31,912 nt of DNA from a virus (taxonomy: Duplodnaviria > Caudoviricetes). The stretch spans positions 1-31,912 of IMG/VR virus record IMGVR_UViG_3300032227_000840; one strand, 5' to 3'. Shown here piece by piece: positions 3,003-30,627 of the stretch. A program made the position numbers and the translations under genes. The number at the start of each line of letters is the position of its first letter. The stretch's first letter is position 1. Below the pieces are notes generated by a model. That model did not search any database. It was not told the DNA's origin and saw only the letters and a program-made list of their open reading frames with translations.

Positions 3003-3371
3003 ATGGCACTACGGACCAGCATGGAAGCGATCGAGGCCATGCCGATCTTCGCCAAGGCGAAGCCGGCGGCCGTCGGCCATGCCGCGGCCGAGGCCTGCGC
3101 GGCGAAGGCCGAGCGGACGACCGCGTTCGACGCCGGCCGGGCCAGGGCCGCTGTGCTCGAGGTCCTGGCGGACGGCCAGGCCCGCAGCGGCGAGCAGCTC
3201 GTCGATCACTGCCAGCGGATCGGGATAGTGCCACATGACGCGAGAGCGTTCGGGGCCGTGTTCGGCAAGCTGAAGCGGGACGGGCTGATCGAGGAGGCCG
3301 GGTTCGTCGCCAGGTCAAAGGGCCACGGGACGAGCGGTGGGCGGCTATGGAGGGCCACGCATGGCCGGTGA
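3003..3371 (+). CDS. Putative winged-helix DNA-binding protein
   Basis: Starts MALRTSMEAI right after the upstream stop. Helix-helix-wing pattern AVLEVLADG..SGEQLV..FGAVFGKLKRDGLIEEAG..LWR. Confidence 0.6.
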   Translation: MALRTSMEAIEAMPIFAKAKPAAVGHAAAEACAAKAERTTAFDAGRARAAVLEVLADGQARSGEQLVDHCQRIGIVPHDARAFGAVFGKLKRDGLIEEAGFVARSKGHGTSGGRLWRATHGR

Positions 3372-4221
3372 ATGGATTCCCTACGACGTTTGCCTACCCC
3401 AGAAGCCCGAGGTCCTGGACCTCGTCGACCGGACCGGCCTCGAGGTCGACCAGGTCGTCGGTCGGCTTCTGATGCTATGGGGATGGTCGGCACTGAACAG
3501 CTCCGACGGGTCGGCCCGGATGTCGCTCCGGCTCCTGTCGAAGGTCTGCGGGGGCGACGAGGCGTTCTGGTACGCGGTCCAGGAAGTCGGCTGGCTCGTG
3601 ATCGACGCGGAAAACGGAACAGTTGGTATCCCCGGATGGGACGCCAGGTTCTCAAAAGCCGCTAAATCAAGGGCCATGGCGACCGTCAGGCACCAGGTCG
3701 ACAAGGTTGGGGGCGCTACGCGCCCCCAGCGGGGGCGCGTAGCGCCCCCAGCCGGGGCGCAGCGCGCCAGAGAGAGAGGAGATAGAAGTTCTTCTTCTTC
3801 CCCCGGGACGGCTGAGCATGGAGACCAAGAGCCGGGCGACTGGGAGGCCCTGCGGAAGGCCTGGCAGGCCGGCAAGGGCCGCCCGTGGAATCTGCCAGAC
3901 CCGCCAGACAAGGCCGCCGACCGGCTGGCCGAGCCCGGCTGGTACGCGAAGGCCCTGGCGGCGATCGAGGCCCTCCCTCGCTGCCGCTACTTCCGCGACC
4001 CCGTGACGCTGCCGCAGCTCGTCGCGCCGGGATTCGTCGACAAGGTCCTCGGGGGCCAGTTCGACAACGCGAGGGATCACGCGCCGGCCCGCGGCGGCTA
4101 CCGCGGCGGCCAGGAAGACCGGCCGCCTCCGCAGGCCTGGTCGGGGAGCGACGCTGCCGCCTTCGAGGCGACGAAGCGGAAGCTCGCGGATCAGATCAGG
4201 TCACAGGAGGGCGCGGCGTAA
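3361..4221 (+). CDS. Phage replication initiator protein
   Basis: N-terminus MAGEWIP..LPQKPEV..VVGRLLMLWGW resembles lambdoid-prophage initiators. The central linker is encoded by ori-like repeats. GGAGG RBS. Confidence 0.7.
   Translation: MAGEWIPYDVCLPQKPEVLDLVDRTGLEVDQVVGRLLMLWGWSALNSSDGSARMSLRLLSKVCGGDEAFWYAVQEVGWLVIDAENGTVGIPGWDARFSKAAKSRAMATVRHQVDKVGGATRPQRGRVAPPAGAQRARERGDRSSSSSPGTAEHGDQEPGDWEALRKAWQAGKGRPWNLPDPPDKAADRLAEPGWYAKALAAIEALPRCRYFRDPVTLPQLVAPGFVDKVLGGQFDNARDHAPARGGYRGGQEDRPPPQAWSGSDAAAFEATKRKLADQIRSQEGAA
3708..3807. other. Putative replication origin within the initiator gene
   Basis: Perfect 20-bp inverted repeat (3708-3727/3731-3750), followed by a purine tract AGAGAGAGAGGAGATAGAAG and a pyrimidine tract TTCTTCTTCTTCCCCC. 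Confidence 0.55.
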
Positions 4222-4448
4222 TGGGACGACCACTCAACACCGGATCGGAGCCATGGGTCGATCCTGCCGAGGACGCCGCGAGCATGTCGAGTCTTCGGCT
4301 CGCTCCGGCGATCGAGGCCGAGGCCCGCAAACTCCGCGATGCTCACATCGGGCGACGCATGGCCGAGACCGAGGAGGCCGCGAGCGCGAAGATCGCGAAA
4401 TGGGCCGCCGGGATCTGCCGGCCACGGAGCGGAGGCCACAGGACGTGA
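4221..4448 (+). CDS. Hypothetical protein (MGRPLNTG...GGHRT)
   Basis: TAATG overlap with the initiator stop; AGGAGG RBS. Confidence 0.65.
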   Translation: MGRPLNTGSEPWVDPAEDAASMSSLRLAPAIEAEARKLRDAHIGRRMAETEEAASAKIAKWAAGICRPRSGGHRT

Positions 4449-4451
4449 GCG

Positions 4452-4541
4452 AGAGAACACGCAGGATCAGGAGCATCGCATGAGTGACGAAACGAAACCG
4501 CAGGACTCGGCAGCGATGTCTCCTGCATTCGCTGGTTCTCA
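4452..4541 (-). other. attC-like site 1
   Basis: Minus strand: TGAGAAC-CAGCG-AATGCAGG-AG-A-CATCGC...GCGATG-CT-CCTGATC-CTGCGT-GTTCTCT. This gives 7-5-8 / 7-6-7 box spacing with two unpaired bases on one arm. Confidence 0.8.
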
Positions 4542-4779
4542 GCCTGTAGCGTGGCGTGTCTATTCCGACGACGGCAGCGAGGCTGTCTACTCGCTTTACG
4601 AGCAGGCCCGCGCCGCAGCGGACGAATGGAACTGGAGCGTAGAGCCGCTCTACCGCCACCCGCGCCCAATGCTGACAGATAGAGAGATTGAAGCCCTTGA
4701 GTGGGCTGCAATAACTGCCAGCGAATCACTGGGGCACGCCGAAGCGATTCGCGGATTGCTTGAGCGATTGGATGACTGA
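4480..4779 (+). CDS. Cassette-borne hypothetical protein with LTD.E.EA...LLERL C-terminal motif
   Basis: AGGAG RBS and ATG lie inside attC-like site 1; sequence MSDETKPQDSAAMSPAFAGSQPVAW... Confidence 0.75.
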   Translation: MSDETKPQDSAAMSPAFAGSQPVAWRVYSDDGSEAVYSLYEQARAAADEWNWSVEPLYRHPRPMLTDREIEALEWAAITASESLGHAEAIRGLLERLDD

Positions 4780-5008
4780 TATGCGAGACGGGATACAGTG
4801 GTACGAGTTTCTTATTGCAGCAACTGTCTGCCCTGCGTCGTTCTTCTGGTCTGTGTGGCTTATTGGGTGGCTGACCAACTCAGACCCGCTGATTGAAGAA
4901 ATATGGCGGCTGCGAGGGCAAAACTCCGTGCTGCGCGAGCGGCTGGAGCAACTGGAGGGCGAGCGGCGGCGAGATGCAGATACGCTTCGCAAGGTGATCG
5001 GGAAGTGA
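4772..5008 (+). CDS. Cassette-borne membrane protein with coiled coil
   Basis: Hydrophobic FLIAATVCPASFFWSVWLIGWL followed by a heptad-like tail. The stop TGA forms part of the next core site, TGAGAAC. Confidence 0.65.
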   Translation: MTDMRDGIQWYEFLIAATVCPASFFWSVWLIGWLTNSDPLIEEIWRLRGQNSVLRERLEQLEGERRRDADTLRKVIGK

Positions 5009-5030
5009 GAACGCGTAGGATCAGGAGCGG
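5006..5030 (-). other. Truncated attC-like site (one arm only)
   Basis: TGAGAACGCGTAGGATCAGGAGCGG matches the left arms at 4453 and 5424; no partner arm follows. Confidence 0.65.
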
Positions 5031-5155
5031 TTGCTCCGCTGTATCGCCAGCCGAAACTCACCGACGCGGAGCAGAGGGCGATTGCGGTGGCGATTGTAGG
5101 CTCGCTTCCGTCTTACGCCGCCACGCTCCGCAACCTTTTGGAACGTATGACGTGA
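5030..5155 (+). pseudogene. 5'-deleted remnant of an LTD-motif cassette gene
   Basis: The frame reads VAPLYRQPKLTDAEQRAIAVAIVGSLPSYAATLRNLLERMT*, has no start codon, and is paralogous to the C-termini of 4480-4779 and 5182-5424. Confidence 0.65.
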
Positions 5156-5181
5156 CGCTCTAGAAAATCAGGTGCAGACAA

Positions 5182-5424
5182 ATGAGAGACAGCGAAATCA
5201 TTGCCATGCTCAAGAACGACTGCCCAATGTGCGGCCCCGCTGACTGCGCGTGCACGGCTACTGAGCAGGATCAATACAGAGAGATACAACGCCTGCGGCT
5301 CACCGACGAGGAGCGGGAGGCGATTGAGTTGTCGGCAGGCGACTACCTCTACCACCAAGACGCTGGAGGCCGAGCGCAGTGGATTCGGAAAACGCTGCTA
5401 GGGTTACTGGAACGACTGAAGTGA
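5182..5424 (+). CDS. Cassette-borne hypothetical protein (CxxCxxxxCxC plus LTD motif)
   Basis: CPMCGPADCAC and LTDEEREAIE...LLGLLERLK. The stop is embedded in TGAGAAC of the next site. Confidence 0.75.
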   Translation: MRDSEIIAMLKNDCPMCGPADCACTATEQDQYREIQRLRLTDEEREAIELSAGDYLYHQDAGGRAQWIRKTLLGLLERLK

Positions 5425-5510
5425 GAACGCCCAGGATCAGCGGCAGCGATGAAAGGACTCACTATGCTTAAAGACTATGCAACGCTGTCCGCTGCATCCG
5501 TTGGTTCTGC
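5422..5510 (-). other. attC-like site 2
   Basis: Minus strand: GCAGAAC-CAACG-GATGCAGC-GG-A-CAGCG...CGCTG-CC-GCTGATC-CTGGGC-GTTCTCA. Same spacing and same unpaired G and A as site 1, with compensatory stem changes. Confidence 0.82.
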
Positions 5511-5901
5511 CTGCTTTGAGTGCGGCGGTCTTGCCGACGTTGAGCATCACGTTGTTCCGAGATCACGAGGCGGCACGAAGACGGTGCGGCTGTGCGAGGA
5601 TTGCCACGGCAAGGCGCACGGAAGGGCGATGACCACGAACGCCCTCACGCGAGAGGCTCTTGCTCGCAAGCGGGCGAACGGCGAGCGAACTGGGCAGACT
5701 CCATTTGGGTTTGACCTCGCCAGCGATGGCCTGACGCTGATTCCCAACGCCGGCGAGCAGGAGTCGTTGGGTGTTATTCGGGGGCTGCGAACACAGGGAA
5801 TGACCCTTCGGGAGATTGCGGCTGAGATGAATCGGCGAGGCATCCGAACGAAAAAGGGCGGGCCTTGGGTTCATTCGACGATCCAGAGGATTGTCGGCTG
5901 A
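5464..5901 (+). CDS. HNH domain fused to a serine-recombinase-type DNA-binding 'recombinase' domain
   Basis: CFEC..HHVVPRSRGG..LCEDCHGKAH, then PFGF..IPNAGEQ..GMTLREIAAEMNRRGIRTKKGGPWVHSTIQRI. Start at 5464 (AAGGA RBS) or 5449, both inside attC-like site 2. Confidence 0.8.
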   Translation: MLKDYATLSAASVGSACFECGGLADVEHHVVPRSRGGTKTVRLCEDCHGKAHGRAMTTNALTREALARKRANGERTGQTPFGFDLASDGLTLIPNAGEQESLGVIRGLRTQGMTLREIAAEMNRRGIRTKKGGPWVHSTIQRIVG

Positions 5902-5904
5902 CAT

Positions 5905-6039
5905 AGGCAGAACCAGTGATTATGCGGACCCGGATATTCACCAATAACACGCCGTCCAGCCGCATATCACGCCGCCGATTCGCGCCACACGGCCGCTAGA
6001 CGCTGATCGCCGCCGCTATCGTGGTCCGCATAACACGCC
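5905..6039 (-). other. attI-like site
   Basis: Minus strand GCATAAT-CACTG-GTTCTGC (7-5-7 simple site), preceded by three direct repeats (plus strand ATA[A/T]CACGCC at 5944, 5964 and 6030). Confidence 0.6.
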
Positions 6040-6103
6040 TCGGTGATTCCATTGAATCCGCCCTCCACAGACCGCCAATAGACTCGACCGCGGAGGGCCA
6101 CGG

Positions 6104-6403
6104 ATGGCTTGTCTTCACCTGACGACCGAGCAGCTCGAGAAGGAGTTCGTCGCCGTGTTCGGCGACGGGGTCGCCGTGCCGACGAAGCTGTGGGTCGACC
6201 ACTTCCACGATTACCACACGTTCATTCGCGTCGTCTTCCCGAAGTTCACAGGGAAAGGGGCCGACCGGCTCCAAGACCTCCGCGACCGGCTGATGATCAA
6301 GTACGGATTCAAGCGGGCCGAGCTGTCGATCGTCGTCTTCATGGACGACGACTCCTACGACTTCTTCGCAGCCCACCGGCTCCACATTCACCTCGCCGGT
6401 TGA
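6104..6403 (+). CDS. Hypothetical protein
   Basis: GGAGG RBS, 99 aa, phage-like codon usage. Confidence 0.75.
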   Translation: MACLHLTTEQLEKEFVAVFGDGVAVPTKLWVDHFHDYHTFIRVVFPKFTGKGADRLQDLRDRLMIKYGFKRAELSIVVFMDDDSYDFFAAHRLHIHLAG

Positions 6404-6427
6404 TTCGCAGGGCAGGAAATCTACGGT
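6400..6427 (+). promoter_or_regulatory. Sigma70-like promoter candidate
   Basis: TTGATT-N16-TACGGT; the same architecture recurs at 27943, 30795 and 31379. Confidence 0.4.
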
Positions 6428-6450
6428 GAAGGTCCGCATGGAGGCGGATC

Positions 6451-6894
6451 GTGGAGTTCACCGTCGAGATACCAGGCGAAGCCGTTCCGCAGCCGCGGGC
6501 ACGAAGCACCCGCGGCGGTCGCATGTACACGCCGGACAACGGGATCGTGGCGTTCAAGCAGGCGGTCGGCCTGCTCGTGAAGGCCGAGGCGGCACGGCGG
6601 AGGATCTCACTGGACGATTCCTCCGCGTTCGTCCTCGAGGTCGTCTGTGTGTTCGGCCGCCCACTTTCCCACCTGACCACCTCGGGCGATCTGCGGACGA
6701 CGGCTCCGGCCTGGCCGGGCCTGCGGTGTGGCGACTGGGACAATCTCGCGAAAGGCGTCGCGGACGCGATCACGAAGACCGGGGCCGTGTGGAAGGACGA
6801 CTCGCAGGTCGTCGAGGGCCGCTGCCTGAAACGCTACGCGATTTGTGGGGAAGGACCGCGGACAGGGATCACGATCCGGAGGCTGCCTCCGTGA
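6451..6894 (+). CDS. rusA: RusA-family Holliday junction resolvase
   Basis: PQPRAR N-terminal motif, DWDNLAKGVADA and WKDDSQVV catalytic Asp motifs. Confidence 0.9.
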   Translation: MEFTVEIPGEAVPQPRARSTRGGRMYTPDNGIVAFKQAVGLLVKAEAARRRISLDDSSAFVLEVVCVFGRPLSHLTTSGDLRTTAPAWPGLRCGDWDNLAKGVADAITKTGAVWKDDSQVVEGRCLKRYAICGEGPRTGITIRRLPP

Positions 6895-8494: not shown

Positions 8495-9378
8495 CCGTAT
8501 CCAACGCCTCGACGATCCGCCGCGTCTCGACGCTTCGGCTCGCCCCGATACATCCGGAGGCGGCCGACTGGTCTACTCGAGTAGCGGCGCAGGGGGCGAG
8601 CGTATCGACGGCCACGCTCGCGAACGTTAGCCGTCTGTGCTACGCGATCGACGCGGCCGGGATTCGTGATCGGTTTCTGCGGCTGAATGTCTTTAGTGGC
8701 ACGGGGCTAAACGCCGCGATTACTCCGCTGTTTCGCGGGCGAAGCCTGACGGGGACACAGTTTGGCGGAACGGTCGATACCAACGCTGGCGGCGCGAGTG
8801 CGTTCGTGTCTGGCGATTACTCGGAATCGGTGGGGCTGACGGGCACGGGAACAAAGCATCTAGACACGGGATTCTCCACTTCGCTGGTGACGGCGGCGCA
8901 GTGGGAATCCATGCACTTTTCTGGGTGGCATGGCCCAATCGCGGCAATAAATACCGACCCGTTCATCGTCGGAATGTTCGGATCGGATCGCTACGGTATG
9001 CAACTTAGTATTCGCACCGCTTCGCTAGCCTACGAAACCGGCCGAGCGGGAAGGACAGCGACCGTAGTGGCAACCTCTGGAGTTCAAGGGGCGAAGCCGT
9101 CCGCGTTTCTGCTGAATCAGCGCACATCTACGGTCTCGCAAGAACTGTATCGCAACGGCACTCTAGAGGTGACAAGCGCGACCGCTGTGACGGCAATCGT
9201 TTCGCAATCGTTTCCGTTTTTTGTGTTCGCGTACAACAACAGCGGCGCAAGAGCGGGCGACCAACCCGGCACGCCGCTGCGGCATTACTCCATCGGCCTT
9301 GCCATGACTGCCGCGCAGGTCGCCGCGTTCTACTCCGCGATGCTCGCGTTCAATACCTCAATGGGGCGAACGTCGTGA
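8491..9378 (+). CDS. Putative fibre/receptor-binding protein (lectin/LamG-like beta sandwich)
   Basis: GTGA coupling; ELYRNG and MTAAQVAAFY motifs typical of concanavalin-like domains. Confidence 0.55.
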   Translation: MTVSNASTIRRVSTLRLAPIHPEAADWSTRVAAQGASVSTATLANVSRLCYAIDAAGIRDRFLRLNVFSGTGLNAAITPLFRGRSLTGTQFGGTVDTNAGGASAFVSGDYSESVGLTGTGTKHLDTGFSTSLVTAAQWESMHFSGWHGPIAAINTDPFIVGMFGSDRYGMQLSIRTASLAYETGRAGRTATVVATSGVQGAKPSAFLLNQRTSTVSQELYRNGTLEVTSATAVTAIVSQSFPFFVFAYNNSGARAGDQPGTPLRHYSIGLAMTAAQVAAFYSAMLAFNTSMGRTS

Positions 9379-9692
9379 CGCTCGACCAGATACCGCTACC
9401 GCTGTCCTACGAAGATTCGCGAACGCTCGCGCTCGTGTATCCCTACGAGATCGCGCTGGCGCTATATCAACTTCAAACGGAGTACGGCGACCCGCGGCAC
9501 GTCCACCAAGGCGTCCAGCTCACCGATGGCCGATATTGCCTATGCGGTGACATTCTCAGCGAGGTCGGGCCTGGCGGGCTCCTCGAGGGTCTCTTCTCGC
9601 ACATCACGCCCGACATGATGTCGGCCGTCGACGTGATCCCATGGGCTGACGCGGCCGCTCTCATGCCACCGGTCGAGGCCGACCCCCTGTGA
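9375..9692 (+). CDS. Hypothetical protein
   Basis: GTGA-coupled on both sides; 105 aa, acidic. Confidence 0.7.
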   Translation: MTLDQIPLPLSYEDSRTLALVYPYEIALALYQLQTEYGDPRHVHQGVQLTDGRYCLCGDILSEVGPGGLLEGLFSHITPDMMSAVDVIPWADAAALMPPVEADPL

Positions 9693-9985
9693 CGCAACGC
9701 GTCGAACGCTGGCAGCCTCCGCGTATGCGTCGCACGACCGCGACCAAGGAGGTCGCCCACTACAGGACGGCCGACTGGAAGGCTCGCCGGCTGCGGATCC
9801 TGCGGAGGGACGCGTTCGTGTGTCGGTCCTGCGGTCGCGTGGTCTACGGCCAGGCCGCCCACGTCGACCACATCGTCCCCCTCGAAGAAGGCGGGACAGA
9901 CGACGACGAGAATCTTCAAACGCTGTGCCAGTCGTGCCACGGCACGAAGACGCGGGAAGAGCAGCGGAGGCGAGGCAGGCTGTGA
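9689..9985 (+). CDS. Packaging-associated HNH endonuclease
   Basis: RDAFVCRSC..HVDHIVPLEEGG..NLQTLCQSCHGTKT, upstream of the terminase. Confidence 0.92.
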   Translation: MTQRVERWQPPRMRRTTATKEVAHYRTADWKARRLRILRRDAFVCRSCGRVVYGQAAHVDHIVPLEEGGTDDDENLQTLCQSCHGTKTREEQRRRGRL

Positions 9986-29322: not shown

Positions 29323-29797
29323 AGCCGACCTCGAGGCCGCGGAGCAGCTCTGCCGCCGGCTCGGTCCGGCCAATTGCTGGACTGGGACGGGAGGTTCTCT
29401 AGCCTCGTTTGCTCTACGAATGATCCGAGAGCTGAAGGAGCGACACATGATCGAGACGAGAACAGCGGCCGAGCAGATGTTGGAGCAGTCGATAGCAGCC
29501 GTCCGCGACCGGCACGGCAAGTACGGACCGCCGGCGGAACACTTCGCCAGGACGGCCGCGATGGTGAACTCCGCCTTCGGGACGAAGTTCACGGCGTCCG
29601 ACTGGGCCCTCGTGATGATCCTCGACAAGGTCTCGCGGCAGCTCGGCGCAGCGGCCACCGACGACGGCGGGATCGACATCGCGGGATATGCTGCCTGCCA
29701 TCAGGAGTGCCGGGTCGCGTCGAGTTCGCCCAGGTCCAGCGGCGGCAGGGTGTCGACCGAGCAGGTGTCCCGCGGGCAGATCAGCGGGTCCACATAG
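29315..29797 (+). CDS. DUF6378-like protein (possible second start at 29447)
   Basis: DRHGKYGPPAEHFARTA..MILDKVSR..IDIAGYAAC. The 3' end overlaps the integrase on the opposite strand. Confidence 0.7.
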   Translation: MTEADLEAAEQLCRRLGPANCWTGTGGSLASFALRMIRELKERHMIETRTAAEQMLEQSIAAVRDRHGKYGPPAEHFARTAAMVNSAFGTKFTASDWALVMILDKVSRQLGAAATDDGGIDIAGYAACHQECRVASSSPRSSGGRVSTEQVSRGQISGST

Positions 29798-30627
29798 ACG
29801 GCCTGGAGGGCCGGGTCGCTGTGGTCGAGGAGCTGGGTCGCCGCGGCGGCTCCGCCCGCCAGGGCCGCGTATGAGGCGGCCATGCGGCGGAATCCGTGGA
29901 ACCCGCGGCCACGATACTCGACGCCGGCAGATCGGCACAGGACCTGTAGAGAGGCCCAGTGGCTGCGGGTCGCCCGGTCCCACGGCCAGACCAGGTCGTC
30001 CGGCCCGCGACGGTGCTCCGCGAGCATCACGGCGAGCTGCGGCGTCACGGCCCTCTCGATGTCGCGGGTCGCTCCTTTCCTCGTCCCGGCCAGGAAGATC
30101 ACGCGACGGCGGTCGAGGTCCACCTGGCCCCAGCGTAGCGACGTGAGGGCCTCGAATCGCTCGCCCGTGCATACGGCCGCGTAGATGAGCGTCGACCACC
30201 ACCACCGGGACGGCAGGCCGCCCGTCCTTCCGATCCGACGCTTCGCCGCCCTGATCAGAGAGCCGACCTCGTCGGCCGTGTAGGCACGACCCAGAGGGAT
30301 TGTCTTCGGGACTTTGACACGCGGGACCTCGGGAAACTCTGTAGTGATTTTCTTACGGGCGAGGTATTCCCAGACGGCCCGGATCATGTTCCTGTCCTTC
30401 CTGATCGTGGCCGGCTTCGGCAGGCGATCACGCCACCCAGGCGTAACTCGTCGCCATTCCAAATACTCCGCGACGACCACGTCCTCGAGGTCTCCGACCG
30501 TCGGCGGTCGTTTCAAGAATCGCTCGAGACGATCGAAGAGCATCCCGTAGAGCGAGACCGTGTGAGGCTTCAACTCGCGGAGCAAGGCATACCGACGAAA
30601 CGCATCACGAAGCAACATAGAACGCAT
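29701..30627 (-). CDS. int: Tyrosine recombinase / phage integrase
   Basis: TGERFEAL (R), TRK (K), FHGFRR (HxxR), LLDHS (H) and AVYVD (Y); AAGGAAG RBS on the - strand. Confidence 0.92.
   Translation of the reverse strand: MRSMLLRDAFRRYALLRELKPHTVSLYGMLFDRLERFLKRPPTVGDLEDVVVAEYLEWRRVTPGWRDRLPKPATIRKDRNMIRAVWEYLARKKITTEFPEVPRVKVPKTIPLGRAYTADEVGSLIRAAKRRIGRTGGLPSRWWWSTLIYAAVCTGERFEALTSLRWGQVDLDRRRVIFLAGTRKGATRDIERAVTPQLAVMLAEHRRGPDDLVWPWDRATRSHWASLQVLCRSAGVEYRGRGFHGFRRMAASYAALAGGAAAATQLLDHSDPALQAVYVDPLICPRDTCSVDTLPPLDLGELDATRHS

Follow-up and report, generated by a model that had tools for sequence, protein, structure and literature searches.

The window, meaning the whole stretch of DNA that was analysed (31,912 nucleotides), is a complete phage genome of 31.9 kb with direct terminal repeats (100% complete), and the phage is temperate. 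HK97-like head and tail genes were identified with Pfam and PHROGs, and both a Sak4-like annealing protein and RusA are encoded (PHROGs). An array of cassette-like units occupies the early region between the replication initiation gene (3337-4221) and the RusA gene (6451-6894), all on the plus strand. The features are as follows.

3337-4221, plus: replication initiation protein (PHROGs), flank of the array in the early operon
4452-4541, top strand minus: full attC-type site (site 1), predicted crossover between 4457 and 4458, with SD and ATG on plus
4458-5011: cassette C, 554 bp, running between two successive left cores of the gene strand, which are complementary
4480-4779, plus: ORF of 99 aa, a 20-aa apparently attC-encoded leader followed by a PVAW-type body
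4772-5008, plus: second ORF of cassette C, with a hydrophobic stretch and a coiled-coil-like part; its stop is the TGA of the next core
5006-5035, minus: half attC site (core and one arm); loop, second arm and next gene start are missing
5036-5156, plus: 3' remnant of an ORF, a PLY...LTD module whose start is lost; repeat D18, joints in relatives' contigs
5182-5424, plus: ORF of 80 aa with its own start; its stop is the TGA of the core at 5422
5422-5510, top strand minus: full attC-type site, predicted crossover between 5427 and 5428, with SD and ATG in the loop on plus
5428-5912: cassette A, which carries the HNH ORF
5464-5901, plus: ORF of 145 aa, a 15-aa apparently attC-encoded leader, an HNH-like motif and a recombinase-type DNA-binding part
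5907-5925, minus: attI-like simple site, two boxes 5 nt apart, predicted crossover between 5912 and 5913; it closes the array
6451-6894, plus: RusA-like resolvase (Pfam and PHROGs), flank of the array in the early operon
29701-30627, minus: phage tyrosine integrase, without a TIGR02249 match and not an IntI

All cassette ORFs lie on the plus strand, opposite to the polarity of the attC and attI-type sites, whose top strand is the minus strand, as the preliminary description had proposed. ORFs 4772-5008 and 5182-5424 end on the TGA of TGAGAAC, also as described; the more general claim, a stop on the next core, holds for two of three cassette ends, the exception being the HNH ORF, which stops at 5901, short of the attI-like core. 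ORF 4480-4779 stops mid-cassette. The first core, AGAGAAC, is stop-free, so that the frame is open back to 4339, and the upstream stop for site 1 lies at 4448, outside its core. The PVAW body of ORF 4480-4779 had no match in Pfam, PHROGs or NCBIfam, and the PLY...LTD module of 5036-5156 is paralogous to other cassette ORFs. ORF 5464-5901 joins an HNH-like zinc motif, whose first Cys lies 2 codons past the core, to a DNA-binding part of the serine-recombinase family, and this fusion is carried as a cassette. A promoter scan of 4200-6500, covering the sigma-70 type only, gave 0 matches, and an Rfam search of the window gave three matches only, at chance level and far below the cut-off. The DNA of 4440-5950 had no match in the cultured phage collection. 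Parts of the array stretch occur in lake and freshwater metagenomes, and relatives were compared via metagenome contigs (8 runs of contigs in all, of which X1, a possible source of the window, does not count as support).

Read on the minus strand, the two full sites show the geometry of attC: AAC, 5 nt and an 8-nt box with an extra base at one end, and a 7-nt box, 6 nt and GTT at the other, giving paired AAC/GTT cores on either side of L boxes, spacers of 5 nt and 6 nt, and a single extra base. The asymmetry of the spacers and the extra base places the top strand on minus, and host sites next to IntI have the same geometry. Across the 31.9 kb, a geometric scan recovered only these two full sites on minus, and one weak, unrelated match on plus. 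The left arms are marked by a three-copy repeat at 4453, 5007 and 5423. The four variable core bases deviate from the strict RYYY consensus, as they do in many host sites. Plus-strand RNA of the full sites folded with z values of -4.1 (4452-4541) and -2.7 (5422-5510) against dinucleotide shuffles, and the predicted plus-strand DNA hairpins leave two stem bases unpaired, a T and a C. According to the available text of Nivina et al. 2020 (PMC7439510), an attC bottom strand folds into a hairpin that is imperfect and leaves two bases extrahelical, as a rule G and T; in the window sites C takes the place of the typical G as first extrahelical base of the recombining strand, as it does in host members of this attC family. 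Three attC sites had been described; the first and last are full, but the middle one (5006-5035) is only a half site and did not fold (z 0.58). In contigs of runs X2, X4, X5 and X19, 205 letters replace the 21 letters of 5015-5035 (joint from 5014 to 5036), and by this comparison the half site arose by deletion.

A candidate attI simple site is present at the insertion end of the array, judged by its position and core complement: the core of the site at 5907-5925 complements the 3' arm of the last attC. Of 6 arrays, 5 show such a complement between the simple-site core and the last attC (shuffle mean 1.0, max 5), as expected of an attI; the simple-site motif was found in 14 viral stretches, part of them by chance. 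The two full sites stand 880 nt apart in a genome in which intI was not found, which corresponds to a CALIN (a cluster of attC sites without an integron integrase), and the intI gene that marks a complete integron was not found in the complete genome (no TIGR02249 match). The array is therefore CALIN-like with an attI-like site, and is neither a complete integron nor a set of canonical cassettes. The window's own tyrosine integrase was considered as the cassette enzyme and rejected, as it had no TIGR02249 match.

Canonical cassettes carry the ORF upstream of, and co-oriented with, attC and are expressed from Pc, whereas every ORF of the window array is on the bottom strand of attC. A gapped pattern search for the attC family retrieved at least 132 viral stretches (~240 estimated) and at least 125 cellular ones (~360 estimated); because the viral sites fall into a few related subtypes and were retrieved with window-derived patterns, their counts do not represent independent origins. 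An IntI-type ORF was present in at least 8 cellular loci with this site family, and all five that were scored exceeded the TIGR02249 cut-off. In the cellular loci L290, L299, L300, L307 and L315, the sites follow genes of the same orientation, and this arrangement beside host IntI fixes the top strand of the attC family. Among the matches listed, a bottom-strand ORF (ATG, at least 50 codons) accompanied 88/100 viral vs 31/97 cellular sites, and an ORF in canonical position (same threshold) accompanied 24/100 viral vs 50/97 cellular sites; when an SD was required, the canonical arrangement was found in 2 of 85 long viral sites. We infer that the host of the window phage is a Planctomycetota bacterium, since the titles of the listed cellular loci that share the site pattern name Planctomycetota most often.

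When the two ends of each cassette were compared, their four variable bases were complementary in 29/43 viral pairs (shuffle mean 5.7, max 14) and 27/34 cellular pairs (shuffle 2.4) among the matches listed, in 23/40 pairs beside phage IntI, and in 16/27 (shuffle 4.9) in a stricter recount. As the rule is symmetric, it was dropped as proof of polarity; it points to circularisation, and polarity is drawn from the host arrays, the position of attI and the linkage of sites with DNA. By these comparisons the genes of the window array are reversed relative to attC, and the reversal given in the preliminary description is upheld both by host integrons of the same attC family and, independently, by the linkage of site and DNA. 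One Planctomycetaceae contig (L333:109-538 and 1047-2180) carries an intI followed by two family sites whose top strand is the intI strand, with an apparently reversed ORF between the two sites, and fits neither layout neatly. Phage-type leader sites were also seen on short contigs in bacterial MAGs (L313, L359 and L365), probably prophage pieces. That such cassettes would lie antisense to Pc inside a host integron, as was also proposed, is a logical consequence of the reversal; no phage-type leader site or reversed cassette was seen within a normal host array among the cellular loci examined.

We compared contigs that share DNA on one side of a site only. When the downstream DNA was common and the upstream DNA different (15 contig pairs, ~10 distinct cassettes), the site interior was shared in 14/15 pairs and the last 4 nt of the site matched in 15/15, whereas the first 4 nt matched in 2/15. 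When the upstream DNA was common (8 contig pairs), the first 4 nt matched in 7/8 and the interior in 2/8, against a background of 97/1500 for the comparison. This pattern puts the swap point at the left core and has the hairpin move with the gene behind it. Contigs of relatives span 4453/4454-5011/5014 with different DNA beyond, another covers 5432-5913, and foreign DNA lies past several contig ends. The ends at 4453/4454, 5011-5014 and 5913, together with complementary cassette ends, agree with a crossover that falls between the core's A and C. In X4 and X5, DNA of the upstream flank runs straight into a site of the 5422 subtype, and cassette A with an identical site interior was found in L224 behind other upstream DNA. 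On these comparative grounds, the site family, its polarity, crossover at the left core and the swapping of units between relatives are established. Contigs of the 8 runs, which drop rare forms, contained no circular cassette joints.

Judged from the same contigs, some exchange is plainly not site-specific, namely the deletion in the middle site and the loss of the whole island outside the cores. The island (4446-6052), including the attI-like site and a palindromic stretch at 5915-6030, is absent in X10 and X3, and the joint from 4445 to 6053 lies outside the cores, suggesting that the island was gained or lost as a block. These observations bear on the alternative that the sites are fossil attC captured from host integrons, which now serve as start modules and homology blocks and are exchanged by phage homologous recombination (Sak4-like, RusA) and not by IntI. 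The absence of IntI from the window genome, the presence of the Sak4-like and RusA proteins, the homology offered by common arms and protein modules, the many contig joints at the 5298-5329 module and the decay of the middle site would all suit it. We nevertheless regard it as unlikely, because the breakpoints fall at the left core, where the first 4 nt track the upstream DNA and the interior tracks the downstream gene, because cassette ends are complementary across 200-1300 nt, for which only circularisation selects, and because short sites without starts are also kept.

The SD and ATG that the preliminary description placed within the attC sites were confirmed on the plus strand, with AGGAG at 4469-4473 ahead of ATG 4480 and AAGGA at 5453-5457 ahead of ATG 5464. 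Both elements lie in the loop only at the 5422 site; for site 1, where the start had been put inside the loop, the SD falls in the stem and the ATG where stem meets loop, although both are inside the site. Translation of the ORFs across the 3' arm yields ...SPAFAGS and ...SAASVGS, GGT TCT spanning the core, as had been read from the letters. The PVAW and HNH Cys motifs of the window start within 1-2 codons of the core, and no Met intervenes.

After similar cassettes had been collapsed, an in-site SD and ATG followed by a long open frame occurred in 60/117 long viral, 0/11 short viral and 2/108 long cellular sites among the matches listed, and the remaining 57/117 long viral sites listed did not serve as starts. 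The GGT-TCT frame was open for a median of 68 codons in viral sites, vs 22 and 24.5 in the other frames, and cellular sites showed no such bias (matches listed in both cases). Despite varying ATG positions, 56 of the 60 in-site starts were in one frame, and 54 had no SD-preceded start in the next 15 codons; 27 were without any start codon in the next 10 codons, while 33 had one. A recount with more short sites gave in-site starts in 43/85 long and 0/30 short sites, and downstream starts in 15/85 long and 21/30 short sites; beside phage IntI, in-site starts occurred in 8/25 long and 0/55 short sites. Homologues of ORF 4480 numbered 85, of which 42 match a crude leader motif, and the PVAW body lacks its own Met where it follows one of several different attC leaders, and elsewhere has a short start of its own (MSE, MSNND). 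It is likely that the two window hairpins supply the ribosome-binding site, the start codon and the first 15-20 residues. The proposed role of attC as a translation start is thus strongly supported by comparison, but for only about half of the long sites.

It is extremely unlikely that the cassettes, though reversed, have genes starting downstream of the sites, with the in-site ATGs incidental. Some start codon does follow within 10 codons of the core in the 33 cases mentioned, and 15 of 85 long sites clearly use a downstream start; the HNH Cys and PVAW motifs, however, follow the core too closely and without an intervening Met, SD and ATG are far more frequent in viral than in cellular sites (matches listed), and one frame is kept across differing ATG positions.

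The viral records of the window phage's group did not carry IntI either (0/39, including 0/9 near-complete records), and a Planctomycete IntI query found 1 viral locus. IntI scored above the cut-off in 35 of 201 sampled Planctomycetota genomes. The attI-like motif of the window was not found beside intI in 5 host genomes; one match with 1 mismatch was found, with no intI ORF seen nearby. A Rariglobus contig (L267) carries an IntI (8796-9734; 295 bits vs a cut-off of 265) directly after a reversed site of the window attC family, in what we take to be the early operon of a Mu-like prophage; two genes of this context had no NCBIfam match. Relatives of this IntI occur in 186 viral stretches; 80 (L389-L468) were retained, and a script located the integrase in 77 of them. 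The same IntI matched 7 records in the cultured phage collection, Rctr41k among them.

Upstream of phage intI in these 77 loci, 60/60 attC-like sites had their top strand opposite to intI, a count that includes duplicates and a few loci where the script chose a neighbouring integrase; downstream sites numbered only 3. A bottom-strand ORF accompanied 75 of 83 sites. An attI-like two-box site with a 4-nt spacer, a spacing picked after inspecting the sequences, preceded phage intI in 52/63 loci (background 67/1817 windows) and matched the last attC in 17/26 (shuffle 2.6). Its spacer differs from the 5 nt of the window site, and the 5-nt-spaced window motif preceded phage intI in 6/77 loci only, with 0/2 matching the last attC. 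Four loci were annotated, with 67 of 113 listed ORFs scanned. Matches to phage families (methyltransferases, PAPS reductase, Lar-like, HNH) lay on the intI strand, 0/13 opposite-strand ORFs over the arrays had a match, and tail genes flank two of the loci. In three of the four, a second, ordinary phage integrase or recombinase stands right after intI. A quick tree contained a supported group of 47 viral IntIs; a single viral IntI clade was not recovered in it (4 changes, 7 host rows).

The cassettes could thus be real and reversed with the enzyme supplied by a co-infecting or resident phage, an alternative that alters the source of the enzyme only. Many phages do encode IntI after reversed arrays, and L267 pairs a phage IntI with the window attC family. 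Against this stand the lack of IntI in the 39 viral records of the window phage's group, the single viral locus found with the Planctomycete query and the frequency of IntI in hosts, and we consider a phage source very unlikely here.

The reading that we favour, with a probability of roughly 0.78, is that the locus is an integrase-less array of the integron type in a phage early operon, with genes on the bottom strand of attC, a hairpin that precedes each gene and travels with it and in two cases likely provides its start, and IntI likely supplied in trans by the Planctomycetota host. The host IntI would likely recombine the sites in trans by acting on the folded gene-sense strand, and cassettes would enter at the attI-like site (between 5912 and 5913), in which case the HNH cassette would be the newest. 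The early phage transcript would read the array toward attI. The TGA stop in a core and the start in the following hairpin may couple translation, in that a stopping ribosome would open the hairpin and restart at the ATG within. The restart step would be most plausible for sites like site 1 with the SD paired in the stem, with the reservation that the stop preceding site 1 itself is at 4448 and not in the core. As to origin, arrival of intI together with attI behind the last gene of an early operon may have left that operon reading the array in reverse; the presence of intI after reversed arrays in other phages would explain the layout, and integrase-less copies such as the window phage would depend on host IntI. 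The earlier idea of a phage-adapted cassette class read by the early operon fits, since the array genes run in the direction of the flanking replication and RusA genes and, in other phages, IntI is encoded behind arrays of this kind. Beyond this, phages may run a mirror-image integron system of their own with a separate cassette pool, in which attC was lengthened into plug-in starts and cassettes are born by in-frame joining of a leader-bearing attC to an existing phage gene body. We advance this only tentatively, rating it a little below an even chance; the birth of cassettes by leader joining is suggested by the PVAW body, which occurs both free and behind several attC leaders.

Recombination sites are known to contribute to translation, as in the attI1 translation signals (ORF-11 fusions) and the small ORFs in attC sites of class 1 integrons; those signals act on the top strand, whereas the window starts are on the bottom strand. 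Single cassettes can hold a reversed gene, as in reverse-oriented toxin-antitoxin cassettes. These are isolated reversed genes with their own promoter, whereas in the window layout reversal is the rule for whole arrays. The sedentary chromosomal integrons of Planctomycetota (L299, L300, L315 and L321) have the same attC family, arms, spacers, length (~88-93 nt) and complement rule as the window, but their genes are on the top strand upstream of attC with intI adjacent, and the window array is reversed without intI.

The available text of Qi et al. 2023 (PMC9892861) reports 17 phage CALINs, which like the window have attC arrays with intI absent, and five phage attC sites that recombine with IntI1, the bottom strand more than the top. 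Compared with these, the window array adds an attI-like site and N-termini apparently encoded by attC. One phage CALIN, TJE1 (L470), is in canonical orientation by eye, unlike the window. In PH101 (NC_029094; L472:2501-2558), the bottom-strand oligos (Table S3, PMC9892861) read by eye on the gene strand, clearly for attC1 and less so for attC2, and a reversed array was probably assayed there unnoticed. The PH101 sites checked are short, with annotated starts downstream, unlike those of the window. The available text of Qi et al. 2023 (PMC9892861) makes no mention of genes reversed relative to attC or of starts in attC. Engineered attC sites can encode a peptide and still recombine, recognition being structural, according to the available text of Nivina et al. 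2020 (PMC7439510); those are engineered linkers or internal insertions, whereas the natural sites of the window appear to encode the SD, the start and the N-terminus. Neither reversed phage cassettes nor starts within attC were described in the literature searched, a search with most subscription journals outside it.

Integrons are regarded as bacterial, with cassette genes pointing away from attI. The present data suggest a phage-side cassette pool in the opposite orientation, with natural protein-coding attC sites and, in other phages, a phage-encoded IntI. One attC site would then be both a swap point and a translation start, and phages would gain site-specific exchange of early accessory genes; methyltransferases, HNH and Lar-like proteins are found in related arrays. 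That one protein body occurs on its own as well as after several attC leaders gives a starting point for asking how cassettes are created, and if a leader was indeed joined to a gene body, it would be a directly visible and testable route of gene-cassette creation. Two consequences are practical: common N-terminal leaders tie unrelated phage proteins together in similarity searches, and annotation that pairs attC with the upstream ORF would pick the wrong gene.

Two further elements were noted in the early region. A 23-bp near-perfect inverted repeat at 3705-3753, within the replication initiation gene, is a possible origin element. A protein module of the LTD-E-R-EAI type at 5298-5329 recurs at 5057-5092 and ~4670-4710, and so in three cassette ORFs; the DNA of the module at 5298-5329 stands beside many different neighbours in lake metagenomes, where it is very abundant, and may be a hot spot of domain shuffling.
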